Of a DNA stretch of 64,000 nt, positions 2,812 to 12,652 are shown in pieces (within the stretch, counting starts at the first letter, position 1; each line of letters opens with the position of its first letter). The translations under genes and the position numbers were made by a program. The notes below the pieces were generated by a model. It worked only from the letters and a program-made list of their open reading frames with translations, was not told where the DNA came from and searched no databases. The stretch is from Nitrospinaceae bacterium (GTDB lineage Bacteria > Nitrospinota > Nitrospinia > Nitrospinales > Nitrospinaceae), in assembly GCA_965223665.1 (NCBI GenBank), contig OZ245011.1:96001-160000 (forward strand). The letters are read 5' to 3'.

Positions 2812-3591
2812 TTAATAAACCTTTACTGTTTTTCCGAGTGGTTTTTTGAAATATTTTGATGCATTTCTCTTGTAGCAAAAAATTTCAATGCATCCCCAAC
2901 TATTTATCAAAGCCCCTAATTCTCCGATTTTTTTATCACTGTATGTTTTTGACAGGTTCTTTATTTTATGGCGACCACACTCTAAAAACCAATCACCTTT
3001 TTTTCTTAAATGGGGTTCTATGTTTGCAAGTTTTAGGTTAGTCATCATATTACCAAATCGATCAATGTAGGTTACTTCCCCAAAAAGATTTTTTCCCTTA
3101 TAAAACGGTTGAGGCAATTTAATCATTATTGGGTTTGACAGCTTATCTCCAATAGTACTTATTGGGGTTCCTTTTGCTAAATGGGCGGCGATGGGAGCAA
3201 AAATATCTCTGCCATGGAAAGTTGATGATACAGGGTTTAAAAAATATTTAGCCTTTGAAATTTCGAATACTTTTGACTTGGAACACAAAATTGGGGATAA
3301 AACTCCATTATCTGGCCCAATAAAAATATGTTGTTTATGTTTGACTGCAATAGGTTTTCGTTTACCTCCCACCTCGGGGTCGACTACGACTAAATGAATA
3401 GATTTTGTGGGAAAGTAATTCCAGAAACTATCCAAAACTCTAGCAGCTTGTTCAATATCTTGTGATTCGATTTGATGGGTTATATCAATTAATTGAGCTA
3501 CGGGAGCAATTTTTAATATTACTCCTTTCATGATTCCAACAAAAGGATCATTTAAACCAAAATCAGTGGTAAGCGTGATTAGGGAAGGCAT
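2812..3591 (-). CDS. SAM hydroxide adenosyltransferase (DUF62 / SAM hydrolase family)
   Basis: ITLTTDFG, VVVDP, FIGPDNG, STFHGRDIFAP, YIDRFGN; the His in TFHGRD fits the hydrolase subgroup. Confidence 0.9.
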   Translation of the reverse strand: MPSLITLTTDFGLNDPFVGIMKGVILKIAPVAQLIDITHQIESQDIEQAARVLDSFWNYFPTKSIHLVVVDPEVGGKRKPIAVKHKQHIFIGPDNGVLSPILCSKSKVFEISKAKYFLNPVSSTFHGRDIFAPIAAHLAKGTPISTIGDKLSNPIMIKLPQPFYKGKNLFGEVTYIDRFGNMMTNLKLANIEPHLRKKGDWFLECGRHKIKNLSKTYSDKKIGELGALINSWGCIEIFCYKRNASKYFKKPLGKTVKVY

Positions 3592-4904
3592 CCGGTAACT
3601 TGACGATTTGTTACATGCTGAACGTTGACTGAAATAATATTATTCATTAAATCATTTTCTCCACTCAGAAAAATTGGGATATAGTTTTCACTATGCCCTT
3701 TCAATAGGTTAGTTTCAGGATCTCTGCTACTTTCTACGAGAAGAGAAACTGTTTTATTTAAAAAGCTTTTTCTAAAGTCTAAAGATTTTTTTTGACCTAA
3801 TTGGGATAAAATTTTATTTCGTTCTTTTTTAGTCTTATTTTGGACATCATTTTTTAGTGAATAGGCAGTTGTTCCTCGCCTAGGCGAATAACTAAAAACA
3901 TGTAAATAAGAAAAAGGAATATCTTCAATTAACTGATAAGTATTTTTAAACATATTTTCTGATTCACCCGGAAATCCGACAATTATGTCTGCTCCTAATC
4001 CTGGATTGGGTATCTTATTTAATATCCGGTCAATCGTTTTTCTGTATTCCTTGGAATTGTAATTTCTTTTCATCTGTTTCAATATATAGTCATCTCCACT
4101 TTGAAGTGGGATATGAAAATAAGGACATAATTTTTCAGACTTTGCCATAAGTTCAATTAAATCTTCATCAATCTCCATGGGATTAATTGAACTAAGCCTT
4201 ACTCTAAAGTTTCCATCCAATTCAACGATTTCTCTAACCAAAGAAGAAAAATTCTCGGGTGGACTCAAATCTCTCCCGTAGGTTCCCAAGTTTATGCCAG
4301 TAAGAGTGATTTCTTTATAACCAGAAGAAATTGCATGTTTCACATTATTAATTATATTTTTTCTGGAATCACTAATGGATCTTCCTCTGGCATGGACCAC
4401 GGTACAAAACGAGCATGCTTCGTCGCAGCCAGTTTGAACTTTTATAAAGGCTTTAGTTTTTCCATGGAAATCAGAAACAGGAATGGGTTGAAAATCCCAT
4501 TTTTCCTTTATATCCTCCATATAAACTAAGGGACTTTGTAAAGAGTTTTTCTTTGAATCTTCTTTAGATAATCGTCTTTGAATTATTTTGGCAATATCTA
4601 GTTTATTCGCATTTCCAAGCAGTATGTCTAAGCCATCTAACTTTGAAACTTCTTCTGGATGGGTTTGCCCGTAGCATCCAGTAAAAACCACCAAAGCGTC
4701 TTCATTAATAGCCAAAGATTTTTTAACCGCGGCTCTTGAACTTTGATCACTTTTAGAGGTAACCGTGCAAGAGTTCACCACATAAATATCTGCTGTCTCC
4801 TGGGAATTGACAATAGTAAAACCTTCCTGTTTTAACAACGTTTGCATTTCGGCTGTATCGTTTTGATTGGTGCGACATCCCAGAGTTGTAAAGGCAACTT
4901 TCAT
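3579..4904 (-). CDS. mtaB: tRNA (N6-L-threonylcarbamoyladenosine(37)-C2)-methylthiotransferase
   Basis: TLGCRTN, NSCTVT, radical SAM CDEACSFC, HIPLQSG, DIIVGFPGE, HVFSYSPR, C-terminal TRAM-like domain. Confidence 0.93.
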   Translation of the reverse strand: MKVAFTTLGCRTNQNDTAEMQTLLKQEGFTIVNSQETADIYVVNSCTVTSKSDQSSRAAVKKSLAINEDALVVFTGCYGQTHPEEVSKLDGLDILLGNANKLDIAKIIQRRLSKEDSKKNSLQSPLVYMEDIKEKWDFQPIPVSDFHGKTKAFIKVQTGCDEACSFCTVVHARGRSISDSRKNIINNVKHAISSGYKEITLTGINLGTYGRDLSPPENFSSLVREIVELDGNFRVRLSSINPMEIDEDLIELMAKSEKLCPYFHIPLQSGDDYILKQMKRNYNSKEYRKTIDRILNKIPNPGLGADIIVGFPGESENMFKNTYQLIEDIPFSYLHVFSYSPRRGTTAYSLKNDVQNKTKKERNKILSQLGQKKSLDFRKSFLNKTVSLLVESSRDPETNLLKGHSENYIPIFLSGENDLMNNIISVNVQHVTNRQVTGCLP

Positions 4905-5004
4905 GGTAAATTCAATTAAAAAAAATTAATAATTTCTCATAGTATGATAATGCCCTAATGGTATCAATGATTTCTTAGAATAAAATAAAAAAATTAGGAG
5001 GAAC

Positions 5005-5033
5005 TTGACCCGGTAGGGAGAGTTTGTTACATT
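5005..5033 (+). promoter_or_regulatory. Putative sigma70 promoter for the fis-glmU-glmU'-glmS operon
   Basis: TTGACC (5005-5010), 17-nt spacer, TACATT (5028-5033) with extended -10 TG at 5025-5026. Confidence 0.55.
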
Positions 5034-5078
5034 AATGGCCTCATTCCGATAGACCGTTTGCCCCACCAAAGAAGGCTT

Positions 5079-5345
5079 ATGAATAAAGTCCAAAAAGATG
5101 TGCGTACGTTTCTTGAAAAATGGTTGGACAAAACTGTTCGCCAATATATTTCCAAAATGGATGGTAAAGAAAATGGCCATTTGCACGATTTAATTATTGG
5201 TGGGGTAGAGAGGCCCTTATTAGAAATTGTACTTCAGGAAACCCAGTATAATCAGACCAAAGCTTCCAATATTTTAGGTATTAACCGAAATACCCTAAGA
5301 AAAAAAATTCAAGAACATAAAATCAAATGCAAAAAGACCACTTAG
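5079..5345 (+). CDS. fis: Fis-family DNA-binding protein
   Basis: VERPLLEIVL...NQTKASNILGINRNTLRKKI HTH; ATG at 5079 after GAAGG preferred over the track start 5058. Confidence 0.88.
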   Translation: MNKVQKDVRTFLEKWLDKTVRQYISKMDGKENGHLHDLIIGGVERPLLEIVLQETQYNQTKASNILGINRNTLRKKIQEHKIKCKKTT

Positions 5346-6076
5346 CGGTCGTTATTTTAGCCGCGGGAAAAGGGAAACGGATGAAGTCAGACCTTCCTAA
5401 GGTATTGCACGAATTAGGATCAAAGACTTTATTGTCTCATGTTTTAGAAACTGTGAAATCGTTAGCTCCTGAAAGGACGGTCATAGTTGTTGGGCACCAA
5501 GCTAAAAAAGTGGAGTCTCAATTTTCGGATCATAATAATGAGTTTGTAGTGCAAAAAGAACAATTGGGAACCGGTCATGCCGTGCAGCAAGCTCAGGAGG
5601 TTTTGGAAAATTTTGAAGGTAATGTACTTATACTTTGTGGAGATATGCCCTTATTAAAAGAGTCGACTTTGAAGAATTTAATAAAATCCCATGAAAACTC
5701 GAGTGTTGAGTGTACTTTGTTAAGTTTAAAGACGAAAGAGCCAAAGGATTTTGGTCGTATTGTCAGGGATGTTGAAGGGAATGTCAGTCGTATTGTAGAA
5801 TTTAAAGATGCAACGGAGATGGAAAAAGCTATTGACGAATACAACTCTGGAGTTTATTGTTTTAATAAGAGTATTCTTTTCAAGATATTACAGTCAATCG
5901 ACAACAAAAACTCCCAAAGTGAATTCTATTTGACCGATGCAATTCGGTTATTGACCGAGGGAGGGAATTTTGTGCAGTGTGTTCAAACCAATGACGATGC
6001 TGAAATTCTTGGAATAAACTCTAAAGCCGATTTAAAAAAGGCGGAAGAAATTTTTTATTCGCGTAAAAATGTTTAA
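5327..6076 (+). CDS. glmU: GlmU N-terminal domain only (GlcNAc-1-P uridyltransferase), no LbH acetyltransferase domain
   Basis: LAAGKGKRMKSDLPKVLH, EQLGTGHAV, GDMPL, EYNSGVY, EFYLTD, GINS; stops at 249 aa where the linker helix begins. Confidence 0.88.
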   Translation: MQKDHLAVVILAAGKGKRMKSDLPKVLHELGSKTLLSHVLETVKSLAPERTVIVVGHQAKKVESQFSDHNNEFVVQKEQLGTGHAVQQAQEVLENFEGNVLILCGDMPLLKESTLKNLIKSHENSSVECTLLSLKTKEPKDFGRIVRDVEGNVSRIVEFKDATEMEKAIDEYNSGVYCFNKSILFKILQSIDNKNSQSEFYLTDAIRLLTEGGNFVQCVQTNDDAEILGINSKADLKKAEEIFYSRKNV

Positions 6077-6118
6077 GCCTTTAATAGTTTTTATAAATAA
6101 TTCTATAATTACTCAAAT

Positions 6119-7324
6119 ATGAAAGCTGTCATATTAGCAGCCGGTCAATCGAATAAGCTAACACCCTTTTCAGATACGCGACCCAACCCAATGATTTCCG
6201 TGGCTGGAGGTTATCTTTTTGGCCATAGTTTATCTTTGCTTAAAAGCGCAGGGATCAATGACATCTTTGTTGTTGTGGGACATAAAAAAGAGAAACTGAT
6301 TGAGCATGTTGGCGAATTATCAAATAATGGATTAAATCTCCAATTAGTGGAACAAAAAAAACCATTGGGTATTGGAGATGCAGTTCTTCAGATTCGAAAG
6401 AAAATATCTCCGGGTGAATACTTCCTGTTGATTTATGGAGATATTATTACGGCATCCAATATATATTCTAAAACGCTTCAATCGTTTCATGCGTTCAAAA
6501 GCCCGGTCGCATCGATTTGTTTGCCTCCTTCAAATGAAATGTTTGGTAATGTTTTCTTAAATGCCAATATGTCTATTACCAACATTATTGAAAAACCTAA
6601 AGGAAATGATCTAGGTAACTATGTATTGTCCGGCGTTTATATTCTTCCCGAATCATTTTTCTCGATTTTAGAAAAAAGTAAGAAATCAATGGAAAAAGCT
6701 ATTCAAAAACTTGTGAAACAAGAAGGGCTGCGTGCTTCAATGTGGGAAGATGAATGGCTAGACATTGTTTATCCTTGGGAAATTCTAACGGCTAATCGGT
6801 TGATTATGGATTCGTGGGAAAGTTCTTCCATTTCCAAGTCTGCAACTTTAGAGTCCAATGTAACTATACAGGGTACAGTTCATATTGAAGATAATGTAGT
6901 CATTAAGGCGGGAGCTGTTTTAGAGGGACCCTGCTATATTGGAGAAGGCGTTTATATTGGAAATAATACTTTAATTCGAAGTTACACATCCATGGGATCC
7001 AAATGTTCAGTAGGATATGGAGTGGAACTAAAAAATTGTGTTGTGCAAAGCCGTTCTCACATAGGTAGATTGTCGTTTATTGGAGACAGTGTTCTAGGGG
7101 AAAATGTAGATATTGGTGCGGGAACCATGACAGTGAATCGACATCTGGATTGGGAAACGGTTAAATGGAAACAGGGTAAAAAGCCCATTGATACTAAGAG
7201 AACCAAACTAGGATCTTTTATTGGTGATAATGCCATTGTGGGAGCTGGTAATACTATTCAACCTGGTACGGTTATTCCACCAGGAAAAGTATTGCCTCCT
7301 AGGTTTTCGGTTATGAATAAATAA
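6119..7324 (+). CDS. Archaeal-type GlmU-like sugar-phosphate nucleotidyltransferase/LbH protein with degenerate active-site motifs
   Basis: MKAVILAAG, IIEKP, WLDIVYPWEIL, hexapeptide repeats, GDSVLGENVDIGAGT, KLGSFIGD. Confidence 0.85.
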   Translation: MKAVILAAGQSNKLTPFSDTRPNPMISVAGGYLFGHSLSLLKSAGINDIFVVVGHKKEKLIEHVGELSNNGLNLQLVEQKKPLGIGDAVLQIRKKISPGEYFLLIYGDIITASNIYSKTLQSFHAFKSPVASICLPPSNEMFGNVFLNANMSITNIIEKPKGNDLGNYVLSGVYILPESFFSILEKSKKSMEKAIQKLVKQEGLRASMWEDEWLDIVYPWEILTANRLIMDSWESSSISKSATLESNVTIQGTVHIEDNVVIKAGAVLEGPCYIGEGVYIGNNTLIRSYTSMGSKCSVGYGVELKNCVVQSRSHIGRLSFIGDSVLGENVDIGAGTMTVNRHLDWETVKWKQGKKPIDTKRTKLGSFIGDNAIVGAGNTIQPGTVIPPGKVLPPRFSVMNK

Positions 7325-7343
7325 TTTACTTTCTTAAGACTAT

Positions 7344-9164
7344 ATGTGTGGAATCAGCGGGGCCGTCGGCCTTAATGACATTTCAAATTTATTATTCGAA
7401 AGCATCAGAAACTTGGAATATCGTGGATACGATTCCTGTGGTGTTGCTTTGATGAATAATAAATCGATTATTGTTAAAAAGAATACGGGAGAAGTGAAAG
7501 CAGTTTATGATAAAGAAAGTATTTTAAGGCATACCTCTAAAATGGGAATAGCTCATACCCGATGGGCCACTCATGGGAAGGTTACCAAAGAAAATACTCA
7601 TCCTTTCTTGTCGGGTGATAAAAAATTTGCAGTTGTGCATAACGGTATTATTTCTAACTATGATGCCCTAAGGTCAACTTTAATTAAGGAAGGTCATAAG
7701 TTTTGCTCCGAAACTGATACGGAGGTGATCCCTCATTTGCTTGAAAAATTTTACAAGCAAGTCAAGGATGTTGAAACAGCGCTGGTGAAGACTTTAAACG
7801 TATTGGAAGGAACCTTTGCTATTGCCATGATTTCCTATTACAAACCAGAGCATATTTATTGTGCCAAAAGAGAGTCTCCTTTATTACTGGGAATCGGAGA
7901 TGAAGTTAAATTTGTGGGTTCCGATTTTAATTCGTTCATCGATTATACAAAAAACGCAGTTATTATTGATGATGATGAGTATGCCATTATTACCAAGGAT
8001 AGTTTTGTTGTAAAAAACTCTATTACCCGCGAGGAAATTAACAAACCCATAACCAAAATCGAATGGGATAGTGAAACATCTAAAAAAGGTGGCTATCCTC
8101 ACTATATGTTGAAGGAAATTCATGAGCAGCCCCAAACTGTGATTAATGCCTTAAAAATTCCGGAAAGCACTATTGATCAAATGGTGGATTTGATTCATGA
8201 AAGTTCAACTTGCCATTTAATCGGAGTAGGGACTACTTTTTACGTGGCAATGTATGCCAATTACGTATTTTCAATTTATGCCGGAAAATTTATTCCGGCT
8301 ATTAGTTCGGACGAATTTGCCTCATTATCTCCTGTTGAAGAAAATAGTTTTGTTCTGGCAGTTTCTCAATCAGGAGAAACCTATGATACGCTTTCTGCGC
8401 TCAAGTATGCACAATCTAAAGGTGCAAAGACAGGTGCTATTGTGAATGTAATGGGCTCATCTTTAGCGCGTTTAGTGGATTGCACTATTCTTCAAGGTTC
8501 AGGACCAGAAATATGTGTTATTAGTACTAAGGCGGCATTTACGCAAATGGTATTGTTAACGAAAATTGCTTTAAAATTGGGGCTGAAGCGAAAGTTTATT
8601 TCGAAAAAACAATATAATGAAAACCTAAATGCATTGAAGGAAATGCCCGAAATCATCCACGGGATTTTAAATGAACGTTCTGGGTTTATCCATCGAATTG
8701 CTCATCAGCATGCTCAAGTAAAGCATTGGTTATATTTAGGAAGAGGAATCTATTATCCCGTTGCCTTAGAGTCAGCTTTAAAAATGAAAGAAGTTGCTTA
8801 TGTGCACGCAGAAGGTATGCCATGTGGTTTTTTGAAGCATGGAACTTTGGCGATGATAGATTCAAATATAAATTCAATTGTTTTTATTCCACCAAAGAAT
8901 GATAAAGAATTGTATGAAGCTACATTGGCCAGTGTTGCCGAAATTCGTGCTCGATCCGGTTATGTTTTAGGAATCCATTTTGATGAGCGTGGAAAAAATA
9001 AAGACCTTTTTAGTGAAGAGCTAATTCTACCGCCGGTGCCTCAAATCACGGCACCTCTTATTCAATTAATAATTGCTCAAATGTTGGCTTATTTTACTGC
9101 AACCTCCCTCAAAAGAAACGTGGATAAGCCGCGTTCTCTTGCCAAATCTGTAACAGTAGGTTAG
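7344..9164 (+). CDS. glmS: Glutamine--fructose-6-phosphate transaminase (isomerizing)
   Basis: N-terminal MCGI, LEYRGYDSCG, HTRWATHG, HNGII, SQSGET, ALKMKE, KPRSLAKSVTV. Confidence 0.96.
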   Translation: MCGISGAVGLNDISNLLFESIRNLEYRGYDSCGVALMNNKSIIVKKNTGEVKAVYDKESILRHTSKMGIAHTRWATHGKVTKENTHPFLSGDKKFAVVHNGIISNYDALRSTLIKEGHKFCSETDTEVIPHLLEKFYKQVKDVETALVKTLNVLEGTFAIAMISYYKPEHIYCAKRESPLLLGIGDEVKFVGSDFNSFIDYTKNAVIIDDDEYAIITKDSFVVKNSITREEINKPITKIEWDSETSKKGGYPHYMLKEIHEQPQTVINALKIPESTIDQMVDLIHESSTCHLIGVGTTFYVAMYANYVFSIYAGKFIPAISSDEFASLSPVEENSFVLAVSQSGETYDTLSALKYAQSKGAKTGAIVNVMGSSLARLVDCTILQGSGPEICVISTKAAFTQMVLLTKIALKLGLKRKFISKKQYNENLNALKEMPEIIHGILNERSGFIHRIAHQHAQVKHWLYLGRGIYYPVALESALKMKEVAYVHAEGMPCGFLKHGTLAMIDSNINSIVFIPPKNDKELYEATLASVAEIRARSGYVLGIHFDERGKNKDLFSEELILPPVPQITAPLIQLIIAQMLAYFTATSLKRNVDKPRSLAKSVTVG

Positions 9165-9243
9165 TCTATCCAATAATTTTTTACCTTACGCCATAAGTGT
9201 GCAGGTTATCTGTGCCTATTTTTTAATTTAAAAGTTAATTTAT

Positions 9244-10632
9244 ATGAGAAGAGTTAATACGGTCTTGACTGTCGCTGGGTCTGATTCTAGTGGAGGTGCT
9301 GGCATTCAAGCTGATATAAAAACCATTGGAGCCCATGGTTTGCTTGGGACTTCTGTGATTACTTCTATAACTTCACAAAATTCTTATGGAGTTCAAGCGA
9401 CCCATCACTTGGATCCAAAGCACATTGAATCCCAATTAAAGTCTATTTTTGAAGATTCAAAGCCTTCAGCTGTAAAAACAGGAATGTTGGGAGAAGGAGA
9501 AATCGTAAAAGTAGTTTCCAAATATTTGAAAAAATATAAAGTGAAAAACTTGGTGGTAGATCCCATCCTATTGTCAACCAATGGATATCCTTTGCTTTCG
9601 AAGGAAGGGATCCGGGTAATGGAAAACTTATTATTTCCACTTGCTAAATTGGTAACACCGAACTTGTCAGAAGCAGAAAAATTATCCGGAGTCCGCATTA
9701 AAAAAGCATCGGATCGAATAAAGGCAGCACGTTCAATATTAAAAAAAGGGGTTCAGGGAGTTTTGATTAAAGGGGGGCATGCAATTGATAATGCTGACGA
9801 TTTTTACTTTGATGGGAAAAATAAGGTTATTTTTCCCGGAAAGCGTTTTCCCATGGAAAATCTGCATGGAACTGGATGTGTACTTTCTTCGGCGATTGCT
9901 TCATGTTTGGCTAAAGGTGAATCCATTATTGAGGCCATTCAAAATGCAAAAAATTTCATAAATGTAGCAATTAGCCAGGGAATATTCCCAGGTAATGGAG
10001 CGGGTTGCGTTGATCCTCTAGGCAAATTTTATGAGAAGCAATTAAGAGAGGATCTTATCCAGCAAGTGACCCAAATGGTAGAAAACTTAAAATCTTATCC
10101 ATTAGGATACTTAATTCCAGAGGTTCAATCTAATATCGGAGTGGGTCTGTCTGGAGCCTTTTCGCCTGATGATGTGGTAGCTATTCCAGGAAGAATAGTT
10201 AAAAAAGGTAAAGGAATTTATACTATTGCATCCCCTGAATTTGGAGCCTCACGGCATGTTGCAAAAATTGTTTTGACCGTAATGCGTGCCGATGAGTCAA
10301 GGCGTGCAGTGATGAATATTAAGTTTACGGACTCCTTGCTAAAAATATGCAATAAATTGGGATTTAAAATTAGTTCTTTTAGTCGTTATAAGGAGCCCAA
10401 AAATATTAAGCAATTGGAAGGGTCCTCATTAGAATGGGGAACTTACCAGGCTATTTCAGACCTTGGAGAAGTACCTGATATAATTTTTGATGTAGGTGGG
10501 CAGGGTAAGGAAGAAATGATCCGAGTTATTGCAAAAGACTCTGCAGATTTGCAGAAGAAAATATTAAAAATTCACCGTCTTGCTTTAAAAGAACTCCCAG
10601 ATAAAGAGATAGATCGATGGAGAAAGAAATAG
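9244..10632 (+). CDS. thiDN: Bifunctional HMP/HMP-P kinase ThiD fused to ThiN thiamine-phosphate synthase domain
   Basis: AGSDSSGGAGIQADIK, TPNLSEA, KGGH, HGTGC; C-terminal LIPEVQSNI, PGRI, FGASRHVA, EGSSLEWG, GGQGKEEMI. Confidence 0.9.
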   Translation: MRRVNTVLTVAGSDSSGGAGIQADIKTIGAHGLLGTSVITSITSQNSYGVQATHHLDPKHIESQLKSIFEDSKPSAVKTGMLGEGEIVKVVSKYLKKYKVKNLVVDPILLSTNGYPLLSKEGIRVMENLLFPLAKLVTPNLSEAEKLSGVRIKKASDRIKAARSILKKGVQGVLIKGGHAIDNADDFYFDGKNKVIFPGKRFPMENLHGTGCVLSSAIASCLAKGESIIEAIQNAKNFINVAISQGIFPGNGAGCVDPLGKFYEKQLREDLIQQVTQMVENLKSYPLGYLIPEVQSNIGVGLSGAFSPDDVVAIPGRIVKKGKGIYTIASPEFGASRHVAKIVLTVMRADESRRAVMNIKFTDSLLKICNKLGFKISSFSRYKEPKNIKQLEGSSLEWGTYQAISDLGEVPDIIFDVGGQGKEEMIRVIAKDSADLQKKILKIHRLALKELPDKEIDRWRKK

Positions 10633-10732
10633 TCAATTATGATCACCTAAAAAACAGGAATTTTCCTCAAAAGCAACATGAATTTAATCAACCATTACCA
10701 AAACGAAAATAAAATATATTTATCAACTTGAA

Positions 10733-12652
10733 TTAAGACAACCCTTTTGGGATATCAAACCATTCCATTTCATCCACTTTTTTCCCAAAATACTTTGCGC
10801 CCTCTAAAGTGTAATGGTGATGATCAGAATATATTTTTTCGAAATTTTCTGTGACAATACTGCATTTACTTTTTCTGACGGAACATTGATAATCAATCTT
10901 TTTCAGAAATAATATTCCATATTTTGACGCAATTGATTTTAGTTTTTTATTTATAGCGCTCGTTTTCTTTTTCCTTTTATTGAATAAATCTTGCTCAGCT
11001 TGGTCTTTTTTAAATAAAGCGAAGTCGCCATTTATATTGCTAACTATATCATCTAAGAGCGTATTATTTTGAGGTTTAATTGGCCACTCTTCTGATTTAG
11101 ATAAAAGAATCACTTTCTTTTCATTTGCTAAGAGAAATTTAATAAAATTTTCAATATAGCTCAATTCATTTCCATTAAATGAATCACTAATTACAACAAT
11201 TCTAGCTTTTTGGAATTCTTGGCTTTCAATACACTCCTTAGTTCTTTCTATACCTCCTTTTTCTATTTCATCAATATATTCTTGATCATTCTTATCATTT
11301 GAAAAAAAGACCAATCGGAGATCACATAGTTCAAAATTATAAAACTTCACGTATTTGGTGCTGTGTATCAATTGAAAAAAATCGAAACCATGACTATCTC
11401 CCCAAACTAGTACATCTATTAAACCTGGTTTTTTGAATTTATCAAAATAATTCCAACCCCTATCAAAATTACTTTTTCGCAAGCTTAAAAGATAATTGTT
11501 ATCATAAACATATCCTTGGAACCTGTTTTTTGAATGTTTTGAATTCCATCCTATGGATATTAAGGCAACCGATAAAATAAATATCATCTGAAAAAAAACT
11601 TTTCTTTTTACTAATTGATTATTTCTAAAAATCTTTTCAACAAAAAAATAACTTATAAATGAACATAAAAAGGTCAAAATAATTAAATAAAGCTTTTGAT
11701 AATTTAAAATACTCCCTAACTGGATCCTAGCGAAAGCAAATATAGGAAAGTGCCAAAGATAAAGTGAATAAGAAATCTTTCCAACAAAATTTATTATTTT
11801 TGAAGACAATAATTTAGAGGCAATATCTATTTGATTTGAAAACCAGATGATTAAGCAACTGCCCAATACAGGAATTGAGGTCCAAATAGAAGGGTGTCTA
11901 GTTTGTTCATCAAAATATAAAAATGATATTATAAGAGTGGTCAAACCAATAGGAGGCATTGTTTTTTGCCAAATCTCCTTAAGTTTTCTCCCTCTACCCA
12001 GAATTTCAAAATAGCTTAATAATACACCTGTGCCTAATTCCCATAACCTTGTATGAATATAATAAAATGTTTTTGATGGCTGGTTTAGGGAACCCCATTC
12101 CGCTAAAAATAAGCTTAAAATTTCAAGTCCAATTAGAAGCGGTAAAAAGTATTTTGGAGATTTTTTTAAAAAGTAAAAACATGTGATCGGAAGTATAATG
12201 TAAAATTGCTCTTCAACTGAAAGAGACCAGGTGTGTAAAAATGGCCTCAATAATCCATCGGTAGCTCCATATTCAATCCCAGAATAATAAAAAAATATAT
12301 TTGATAAAAAAAATATTGATGAAAAAATTGAGTTAATAAAATTAGAAAAATTGGTGGGTAATAGAACAAAGTAAGCAATTGGAATGCTGGTAAATATGAC
12401 AAGATATAATGCGGGTAAAATTCGTCTGGCTCTTCTTTCATAAAAATTTAAAAAACTAAAACCGTTGCTTATTTTTATTTCATAAATAATAATTCTTCCT
12501 ATCAAATAACCGCTGATTACAAAAAATATATCTACCCCGATATATCCTCCTTCAATCCAAAATTGTTCAAAAAGGACAATTTCAGCGTGATACATTATAA
12601 TGCCCAGAACTGCAATAGCTCTGAGCCCATCAATGTCAGTTCTGTATTTCAC
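10733..12652 (-). CDS. Acyltransferase-3 / SGNH fusion O-acetyltransferase (OafA/OatA-like)
   Basis: YRTDIDGLRAIAV, GVDIFFVISG, RRILP, HTWSLSVEEQFY, SYSLYLWHFP; SGNH VWGDSH and DHHH; GTG start. Confidence 0.92.
   Translation of the reverse strand: MKYRTDIDGLRAIAVLGIIMYHAEIVLFEQFWIEGGYIGVDIFFVISGYLIGRIIIYEIKISNGFSFLNFYERRARRILPALYLVIFTSIPIAYFVLLPTNFSNFINSIFSSIFFLSNIFFYYSGIEYGATDGLLRPFLHTWSLSVEEQFYIILPITCFYFLKKSPKYFLPLLIGLEILSLFLAEWGSLNQPSKTFYYIHTRLWELGTGVLLSYFEILGRGRKLKEIWQKTMPPIGLTTLIISFLYFDEQTRHPSIWTSIPVLGSCLIIWFSNQIDIASKLLSSKIINFVGKISYSLYLWHFPIFAFARIQLGSILNYQKLYLIILTFLCSFISYFFVEKIFRNNQLVKRKVFFQMIFILSVALISIGWNSKHSKNRFQGYVYDNNYLLSLRKSNFDRGWNYFDKFKKPGLIDVLVWGDSHGFDFFQLIHSTKYVKFYNFELCDLRLVFFSNDKNDQEYIDEIEKGGIERTKECIESQEFQKARIVVISDSFNGNELSYIENFIKFLLANEKKVILLSKSEEWPIKPQNNTLLDDIVSNINGDFALFKKDQAEQDLFNKRKKKTSAINKKLKSIASKYGILFLKKIDYQCSVRKSKCSIVTENFEKIYSDHHHYTLEGAKYFGKKVDEMEWFDIPKGLS

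Follow-up and report, generated by a model that had tools for sequence, protein, structure and literature searches.

A putative GlmS-binding pseudoenzyme derived from archaeal-type GlmU beside a split UDP-GlcNAc pathway in Nitrospinota

In this study, we analyzed a 64,000-nucleotide stretch of the genome of a Nitrospinaceae bacterium (assembly GCA_965223665.1, contig OZ245011.1, positions 96,001 to 160,000; hereafter the window), in which two relatives of the bifunctional enzyme GlmU are encoded immediately before glmS. Gene 1 is half of a bacterial GlmU, and gene 2 is a full-length GlmU of archaeal type that has lost catalytic residues in both of its domains. The explanation towards which we lean is that gene 2 encodes a GlmS-binding pseudoenzyme acting as a product-reading feedback sensor, with uridine diphosphate N-acetylglucosamine (UDP-GlcNAc) being made by a split pathway. 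The main features in window coordinates are as follows.

5327..6076, plus strand: gene 1, predicted stand-alone GlcNAc-1-P uridyltransferase (N-terminal half of bacterial GlmU), 249 amino acids (aa)
6119..7324, plus strand: gene 2, full-length archaeal-type GlmU paralogue of the Arg-type (His-less) clade, 401 aa
6119..6811, plus strand: nucleotidyltransferase-fold domain of gene 2 (approximately residues 1-231), bearing the predicted GlmS interface
6824..7288, plus strand: left-handed beta-helix of gene 2 (approximately residues 236-390), in which the His base is replaced
7067..7069, plus strand: codon AGA for Arg317 of gene 2, at the catalytic His position
7344..9164, plus strand: glmS, 19 bp past gene 2, with the catalytic Cys kept and a C-terminal Gly

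Loss of catalytic residues in gene 2

Profile searches assigned gene 2 to the archaeal GlmU family TIGR03992 (305.4 bits vs the cut-off of 292.1), and its score for TIGR03991, the Bacteroidetes-type alternative GlmU, fell below the cut-off (89.3 vs 225.3 bits). The cut-off of PF25084 was also passed, and a connection with the origin of eIF2B gamma/epsilon by way of Asgard relatives was considered; however, eIF2B epsilon ranks far below ST0452 of Sulfolobus tokodaii. No match to the CofD/YvcK domain (PF01933) was found in gene 2. The model of gene 2 (mean predicted local distance difference test score, pLDDT, 92) folds like ST0452 (template modelling score 0.86 to 5z0a, 31% identity). In the alignment with ST0452 (2ggo), Arg13, Lys23 and Gly11 of the nucleotidyltransferase domain are replaced in gene 2 by Lys, Asn and Ser, respectively, and His308 and Tyr311 of the acetyltransferase domain by Arg317 and Phe320. 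In an equal-length alignment of residues 293-342 with residues 339-388 of E. coli GlmU (1hv9), Arg317, Phe320 and His314 correspond to positions 363, 366 and 360, respectively. An earlier note, made from the letters of this stretch, had described gene 2 as a full-length archaeal-type GlmU with an eroded nucleotidyltransferase signature and with H363 changed to Arg, Y366 to Phe and K360 to His; both descriptions are confirmed by TIGR03992 and by the alignments to ST0452 and 1hv9. A further change, absent from that note, concerns E. coli position 377, where gene 2 has Asp331 and the compared GlmU chains have Asn. According to passages of a review (PMC4909775), His308 is essential to the acetyltransferase of ST0452, and Tyr311 matters only for its galactosamine activity.

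Conservation was examined in an alignment of gene 2 and the best 120 of 1329 homologues, for which candidates had been picked by shared words, a procedure biased to close kin. Named homologues were proteins of Nitrospina and Nitrospinaceae, in line with a probable placement of the organism in Nitrospinota. All sequences (121/121) share Arg317 and Phe320, so these substitutions are not due to chance. Position 13 is Arg in only six of the 121, and position 23 is mostly Ile or Asn, with Lys in at most one. The nucleotidyltransferase pocket retains Asp108 and Glu158-Lys159-Pro160 in all 121 sequences, and the pocket residues Asp108, Glu158, Arg287, Glu303, Lys305, Asn340 and Lys363 are invariant (121/121). 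The catalytic motif has been lost, and the fold and pockets have been kept under selection, as in a GMPPA-type pseudoenzyme. From these residue patterns, gene 2 is a probable catalytically inactive pseudoenzyme.

Two residues were considered as substitutes for the missing base. His314 was rejected as a swapped catalytic base for its variability (43/121). Asp331 is near-invariant in the closest 121 sequences but occurs in only 29 of 63 rows of a wider alignment, and was rejected as well.

Candidate enzymes for the two GlmU steps

Gene 1 matches positions 2-240 of the 452-position model for bacterial bifunctional GlmU (TIGR01173) with 289.7 bits, under the cut-off of 366.85, and a profile scan of its protein revealed no hexapeptide match. 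The G-x-G-x-R plus Lys motif of the uridyltransferase is intact: Arg18 and Lys25 occur in 29 of 30 aligned rows (the remaining row is incomplete), and Asp106, Glu158 and Asn231 in all 30. Profiles and motif alignment thus bear out the earlier description of gene 1 as a bacterial GlmU uridyltransferase with an intact motif and no left-handed beta-helix domain. In the loci of the best 30 matches among 61 genomes, gene 1 always lies upstream of gene 2 and is closed by a stop codon, which rules out a frameshift or assembly break. Full-length bacterial GlmU was not found in this genome (98.6% complete), and the cut-off for the full enzyme was reached in none of 120 genomes of the phylum, 108 of which carry the half-length type. 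We infer that gene 1 is the uridyltransferase of a split pathway.

The second candidate is P0273, a 259-aa beta-helix protein (G000:C1:3128324-3129103) first seen as a weak tblastn match. Its sequence can be aligned to the acetyltransferase portions of both ST0452 and bacterial GlmU, and eight site residues (Arg, Glu, Lys, His, Tyr, Asn, Asn and Lys) are conserved in 30/30 rows. P0273 was found in 106 of the 120 phylum genomes, including 56 of the 57 high-quality ones; although the likely real acetyltransferase, it reaches no NCBIfam cut-off. It lies directly behind a gene for a phosphohexomutase, with the two being neighbours in 29 of 30 loci.

G000:C1:3129128-3131209 (L061:8129-10210), minus strand: phosphohexomutase, 693 aa, best family GlmM, far under its cut-off

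This mutase is much longer than the 442-position GlmM model. In four loci (L117, L121, L122 and L123), half-GlmU, a second GlmS-like gene, gene 2, glmS, the mutase and the acetyltransferase form a single cluster. Judging from motifs and context, intact candidates other than gene 2 exist for each of the GlmU steps, and in this lineage of nitrite-oxidiser-type bacteria the steps are divided between two small enzymes. The system is phylum-wide, and gene 2 is very probably not the main acetyltransferase in this lineage. Acetylation by an enzyme of the GNAT (Gcn5-related N-acetyltransferase) type had also been considered; this route was dropped on the discovery of P0273, and no GNAT search was made.

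Besides the mutase next to P0273, relatives of 627-720 aa follow glmS in 23 of 80 loci.

Retention of gene 2 and its linkage to glmS

Gene 2 is present in 104 of the 120 phylum genomes (55 of the 57 high-quality ones). For one genome pair (G000 vs G001), the ratio of nonsynonymous to synonymous substitution rates (dN/dS) is 0.015 for gene 2 and 0.016 and 0.013 for its two domains, compared with 0.012 for GlmS (490 codons), 0.104 for gene 1 and 0.073 for P0273. The low ratio, the absence of a full GlmU from the 120 phylum genomes and the presence of gene 2 in most of them indicate that gene 2 is under strong selection rather than in decay. Strain-specific decay beside a canonical glmU, a case raised in the earlier note, is thereby excluded. 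The idea of a decaying relic with a canonical glmU elsewhere would explain the motif loss and nothing further, and we give it next to no credence.

A representative search yielded 151 rows, 140 of them full length, comprising 93 His-type, 30 Arg-type and 17 other sequences. When a FastTree phylogeny was computed without the His/Arg column, a 40-row split united all 30 Arg-type sequences with no His-type ones (support 0.999); within this His-less clade, the His is in some members replaced by Ser or Gly. Arg13 and Lys23 are both kept in 89/93 His-type vs 4/30 Arg-type representatives, and hence both sites fail together. Named clade members or cluster mates include Nitrospinota, Heimdallarchaeia, Hodarchaeota, Desulfurococcales and Ignisphaera.

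Genomes were also scanned with an Arg-selecting pattern, which gave 352 confirmed stretches. The best 80 of these were taken as loci, whose titles include SAR324, Lambdaproteobacteria, Deltaproteobacteria and Nitrospinota. Gene 2 is followed by glmS in 80/80 loci, with a spacing of -1 to 153 bp across the 67 pairs that are complete, and half-GlmU is found in 30/80. Since His-type GlmU genes also lie near glm genes, a control set was assembled from the best 80 of 536 metagenome loci, retrieved with patterns that ignore the His/Arg position, and two plasmid loci. When only copies with 700 bp or more of downstream sequence are counted, glmS comes directly after 26/31 Arg-type, 0/31 His-type, 0/3 Gly-type and 1/1 Thr-type copies, numbers that include non-independent kin and stand for few lineages rather than 62 events. 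Thirteen His-type copies of this set follow glmM. The two-protein chimeric GlmU with a His/basic-residue swap, one of two options in the earlier note, agrees poorly with these data: gene 2 accompanies glmS at every one of the 80 loci and gene 1 at only 30, and His314 varies as described above.

Members of the His-less clade were also seen in Asgard archaea and Thermoprotei (P0139, P0302, P0304, P0243 and P0319); in the closest metagenome relatives of P0139, glmS is not downstream. The Methanohalobium evestigatum plasmid NC_014254.1 (L412:518-6188) has the order glmU - glmS - glmM - glmU, in which the His motif is present in the glmU after glmM but not in the one before glmS. Because the copy before glmS also lacks the Tyr168 and Trp209 marks described below, this arrangement may have a separate origin on the plasmid. 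At the haloarchaeal plasmid loci, no paralogue was found directly before glmS.

Predicted complex of gene 2 with GlmS

The partner glmS is a single-copy gene in this genome, and all GlmS catalytic motifs checked are intact. Its product ends in Gly or Ala in 67/67 complete pairs, and two archaeal GlmS proteins end in Glu. A complex was modelled with one chain each of GlmS (residues 2-606) and gene 2 (residues 1-394), using 63-row alignments of their own. It scored 0.73 (0.72, 0.74 and 0.73 in separate runs) vs 0.00 for the best of three controls; the score mark is reached by 116/157 solved and 2/215 mismatched pairs and is a rough guide for a model built on its own alignments. The runs share at least 85% of contacts, with a partner pLDDT of at least 86. 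On gene 2, the predicted interface lies in the nucleotidyltransferase-fold domain (residues 97-168 and 202-210). On GlmS, it comprises the linker 237-264, residues 439-451 and the glutaminase face (2, 25-29, 74 and 101). Two interface residues mark the Arg-type clade: Tyr168 is found in 26/30 Arg-type vs 7/93 His-type sequences, and Trp209 occurs in 25/30 Arg-type sequences and is outside the three commonest residues of the His type. On the basis of this model, gene 2 probably binds GlmS. The other option of the earlier note, a pseudoenzyme acting on the adjacent GlmS with acetylation done elsewhere, gains support from the intact P0273 and from the linkage and the model, which point to GlmS.

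In some lineages, half-GlmU and gene 2 are separated by a second full-length GlmS paralogue, in which Ser replaces the catalytic N-terminal Cys.

L117:4161-5972, L121:4158-5984, L122:4173-5990, L123:4171-5985; L415-L420; L368, L374: Ser-type GlmS paralogue

It is 31-37% identical to other GlmS proteins and occurs in six of the 120 phylum genomes, and seven of these paralogues end in Glu. The residue change makes it a likely pseudo-GlmS, and operons that include it may therefore hold two pseudoenzymes.

Proposed mechanism

We propose that UDP-GlcNAc would be produced by four separate enzymes, GlmS, the oversized GlmM-like mutase, P0273 and gene 1. Gene 2 would be needed for neither GlmU step and would have been kept as a pseudoenzyme to bind GlmS. 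Its nucleotidyltransferase-fold domain is predicted to dock on the interdomain linker and glutaminase face of GlmS, leaving two putative pockets, one for a nucleotide sugar and a very basic one for a phosphosugar in the beta-helix. The retained pocket residues together with the added Arg317 would suit binding of a phosphorylated sugar without chemistry. We infer that UDP-GlcNAc or a GlcN(Ac)-phosphate is most likely sensed by these pockets, with GlmS activity being lowered at high product levels. Given the roles of Cys1, Arg26 and Trp74, a partner docked on the glutaminase face would impede the closing of GlmS, which suggests inhibition. Binding to GlmS is the firmer part of this proposal; for ligand-gated feedback, we regard the chances as about even.

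A broader reading is offered more tentatively, and we would sooner doubt than accept it. The His-less clade may represent an undescribed protein-based control of GlmS that operates in Nitrospinota and SAR324 and has relatives among Asgard archaea and Thermoprotei; in it, a two-pocket sensor wedged between the glutaminase and isomerase domains gates the entry of carbon and nitrogen into amino sugars. It would have begun as a GlmS-binding uridyltransferase, which SAR324 copies may still be, and become a pure regulator once the bacterial half-GlmU took over; SAR324 would then acetylate either with Arg or by another acetyltransferase.

Counter-evidence and alternative explanations

Several observations weigh against a GlmS-binding regulator without catalysis, above all those from SAR324. 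Outside the phylum, 24 genomes were examined, 17 of which are of SAR324 type (G120-G136; loci L063-L096 and L106); completeness figures are lacking for this set. Neither bacterial GlmU nor its half was found in any of the 24 at E 1e-25. The stand-alone acetyltransferase is present in seven, namely all seven non-SAR324 genomes, and was not found in 17/17 SAR324-type genomes; in these, both P0273 and TIGR03991 match the Arg-type protein alone. It is hard to blame assembly gaps for an absence in 17 of 17. SAR324-type genomes carry LpxA-like genes, and since genomes with LpxA should need UDP-GlcNAc, so should these. The SAR324 copy may thus be active as an acetyltransferase with Arg, by analogy with the beta-helix N-acetyltransferase ApmA, which works without its His according to passages of PMC7885111 (H135A).

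The uridyltransferase residues show a related pattern. Arg13 is kept in 14/16 and Lys23 in 16/16 rows from SAR324-type genomes with neither half enzyme, vs 0/26 and 4/26 rows with half-GlmU in the locus, a comparison that covers few independent lineages and excludes 14 of the 63 rows (genome untested or locus without half-GlmU). This fits a uridyltransferase function kept where gene 2 is the sole enzyme, and a motif lost yet a gene retained where gene 1 took over. SAR324 copies are mostly without both motif glycines.

Other SAR324 candidates were sought. The additional beta-helix proteins inspected, which covered part of the open reading frames, resemble LpxA, LpxD, CysE, DapD or gamma-carbonic anhydrase in both length and sequence, and the other nucleotidyltransferases scanned match GalU or MurU best, under the cut-off. 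Among five SAR324 genomes, PF01704 gave no match, but its positive control likewise matched nowhere, and PF01933 matched in two (either CofD or GlmR). No alternative to a GlmU-type acetyltransferase was found in this search, in which GNATs were not surveyed.

The linkage and the model have their own weak points. Several archaea-like members are without a following glmS (5/31 Arg-type and 3/3 Gly-type copies in the control set). Averaged over its 49 interface positions, gene 2 shows no higher conservation than elsewhere in the domain (0.598 vs 0.596); the GlmS side is more conserved (0.78 vs 0.64), but it holds catalytic residues that are conserved anyway. Close cousins of a partner can pass the score, and the controls did not contain a His-type GlmU. 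GlmS and GlmU families are oligomers, the latter with a beta-helix trimer, and the modelled contact on GlmS Cys2, Trp74 and Gly101 could replace an absent subunit.

Gene 2 might act constitutively as part of a deviant GlmS, in a structural or activating role, or serve as a scaffold of the split pathway, rather than being a ligand-gated brake. The same linkage and complex model would be expected, the near-universal retention would suit an essential subunit, gene 2 evolves as slowly as GlmS, and the Gly/Ala terminus of partner GlmS, set beside the Glu of two archaeal ones, is in keeping with it. However, the invariant pocket residues of both domains suggest ligand binding and the GlmS motifs checked are intact, and we consider this explanation unlikely. 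Somewhat less likely still is an acetyltransferase without a His base, in which Arg would lower the amine pKa or position the substrate; the protein would be the whole GlmU in SAR324 and serve for backup or channelling in Nitrospinota, which includes the chimeric GlmU. The SAR324 data speak for it (a sole GlmU-type candidate that keeps Arg13 and Lys23), as do the ApmA precedent, the limited role of Tyr311 in ST0452 and the kept substrate-site residues. Against it, a canonical acetyltransferase co-occurs in 106/120 phylum genomes and in 7/7 other tested ones, there is no conserved substitute base, the His position is occupied by Ser or Gly in part of the clade, and most SAR324 copies lack the motif glycines. 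Action on another substrate (an amino-sugar phosphate or acyl donor) in a side pathway from GlcN-6-P would also account for the invariant pockets and is compatible with the broad annotation of TIGR03992 as sugar-1-phosphate nucleotidylyltransferase/acetyltransferase. This is improbable in our view: Arg13 and Lys23 are replaced by many different residues, which indicates relaxed catalysis rather than new specificity, and no side-pathway gene recurs among the neighbours listed for 14 loci. On balance, we keep the GlmS-binding pseudoenzyme as the best explanation.

Operon context

The genes fis, gene 1, gene 2 and glmS lie on one strand, with gaps of 42 bp between gene 1 and gene 2 and 19 bp between gene 2 and glmS.

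5058..5345, plus strand: Fis-family transcriptional regulator, whose final 19 bp are shared with the start of gene 1

A fis gene is also upstream in 26/30 relatives' loci. It is likely the first gene of the operon, and its position before gene 1 may tie the operon to growth phase. No Rfam match was found around the operon (window 3500-11000), and promoter and terminator scans gave no surplus over shuffled sequence (17 vs 15.3 and 4 vs 2.9, respectively). GlmR (PF01933) and RapZ families had no match in the genome, and positive controls were detected.

A ThiD-ThiN fusion adjoins the operon (window 9244-10632; best family NF006346, 400 vs 528 bits). Such fusions are typical of archaea and Thermotoga, and this is a second archaeal-type gene beside the operon.

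Comparison with known systems

GlmS catalyzes the committed step to UDP-GlcNAc, and its known bacterial controls, the ribozyme, RapZ with small RNAs, and GlmR, were not found here in the searches described. If our explanation is true, a GlmU-derived pseudoenzyme would be another GlmS control, in abundant marine and groundwater autotrophs, and GMPPA-type logic would extend to a cross-enzyme target. The phylum also presents an annotation trap, as its genomes label gene 2 'bifunctional GlmU' though both sites have lost their catalytic residues. In SAR324, there is a concrete hole in an essential pathway, the route to UDP-GlcNAc. Among titles and the openings of abstracts, in a search whose coverage excluded most subscription journals, we found no literature on a non-catalytic GlmU paralogue or a Nitrospina GlmU.

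A precedent for gene 1 comes from Capnocytophaga canimorsus, for which passages of PMC4358021 describe a monofunctional GlcNAc-1-P uridyltransferase, with monofunctional orthologues in 30/45 Bacteroidetes genera. Both proteins are uridyltransferases without an acetyltransferase domain. Unlike the C. canimorsus enzyme, gene 1 is the plain N-terminal half of a canonical bacterial GlmU, and the genome here also holds a separate acetyltransferase, which predicts no GlcNAc auxotrophy. The autonomous halves of E. coli GlmU provide a further likeness.

Gene 2 shares the two-domain fold of ST0452 (2ggo, 5z09 and 5z0a), whose family cut-off it passes, and keeps the equivalent of Asn331 and the basic site residues. 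It differs from ST0452 in lacking the equivalents of Arg13, Lys23, His308 and Tyr311, and from His-type archaeal GlmU in belonging to a separate His-less clade and lying directly before glmS.

According to PMC11228364, GMPPA, a non-catalytic paralogue of the GDP-mannose pyrophosphorylase GMPPB, is a product-binding feedback inhibitor. It combines a nucleotidyltransferase domain with a beta-helix as gene 2 does (7d72 is a fold match), and by analogy gene 2 most likely works like GMPPA. However, GMPPA regulates its own catalytic paralogue, whereas gene 2, which derives from GlmU, is predicted to act on the unrelated upstream enzyme GlmS. GlgD, eIF2B gamma/epsilon and GalF ('GalU regulator' by family name) are further non-catalytic members of the superfamily. 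With respect to the target, passages of PMC13046274 report that GlmR (YvcK) of Bacillus and Listeria binds and stimulates GlmS, with UDP-GlcNAc binding as feedback, and GlmR is itself an active uridyltransferase according to PMC10128056. GlmR thus has the same target as that predicted for gene 2 but belongs to an unrelated family (PF01933). By these comparisons, gene 2 would be a descendant of archaeal-type GlmU that most resembles GMPPA in fold and logic and GlmR in target.

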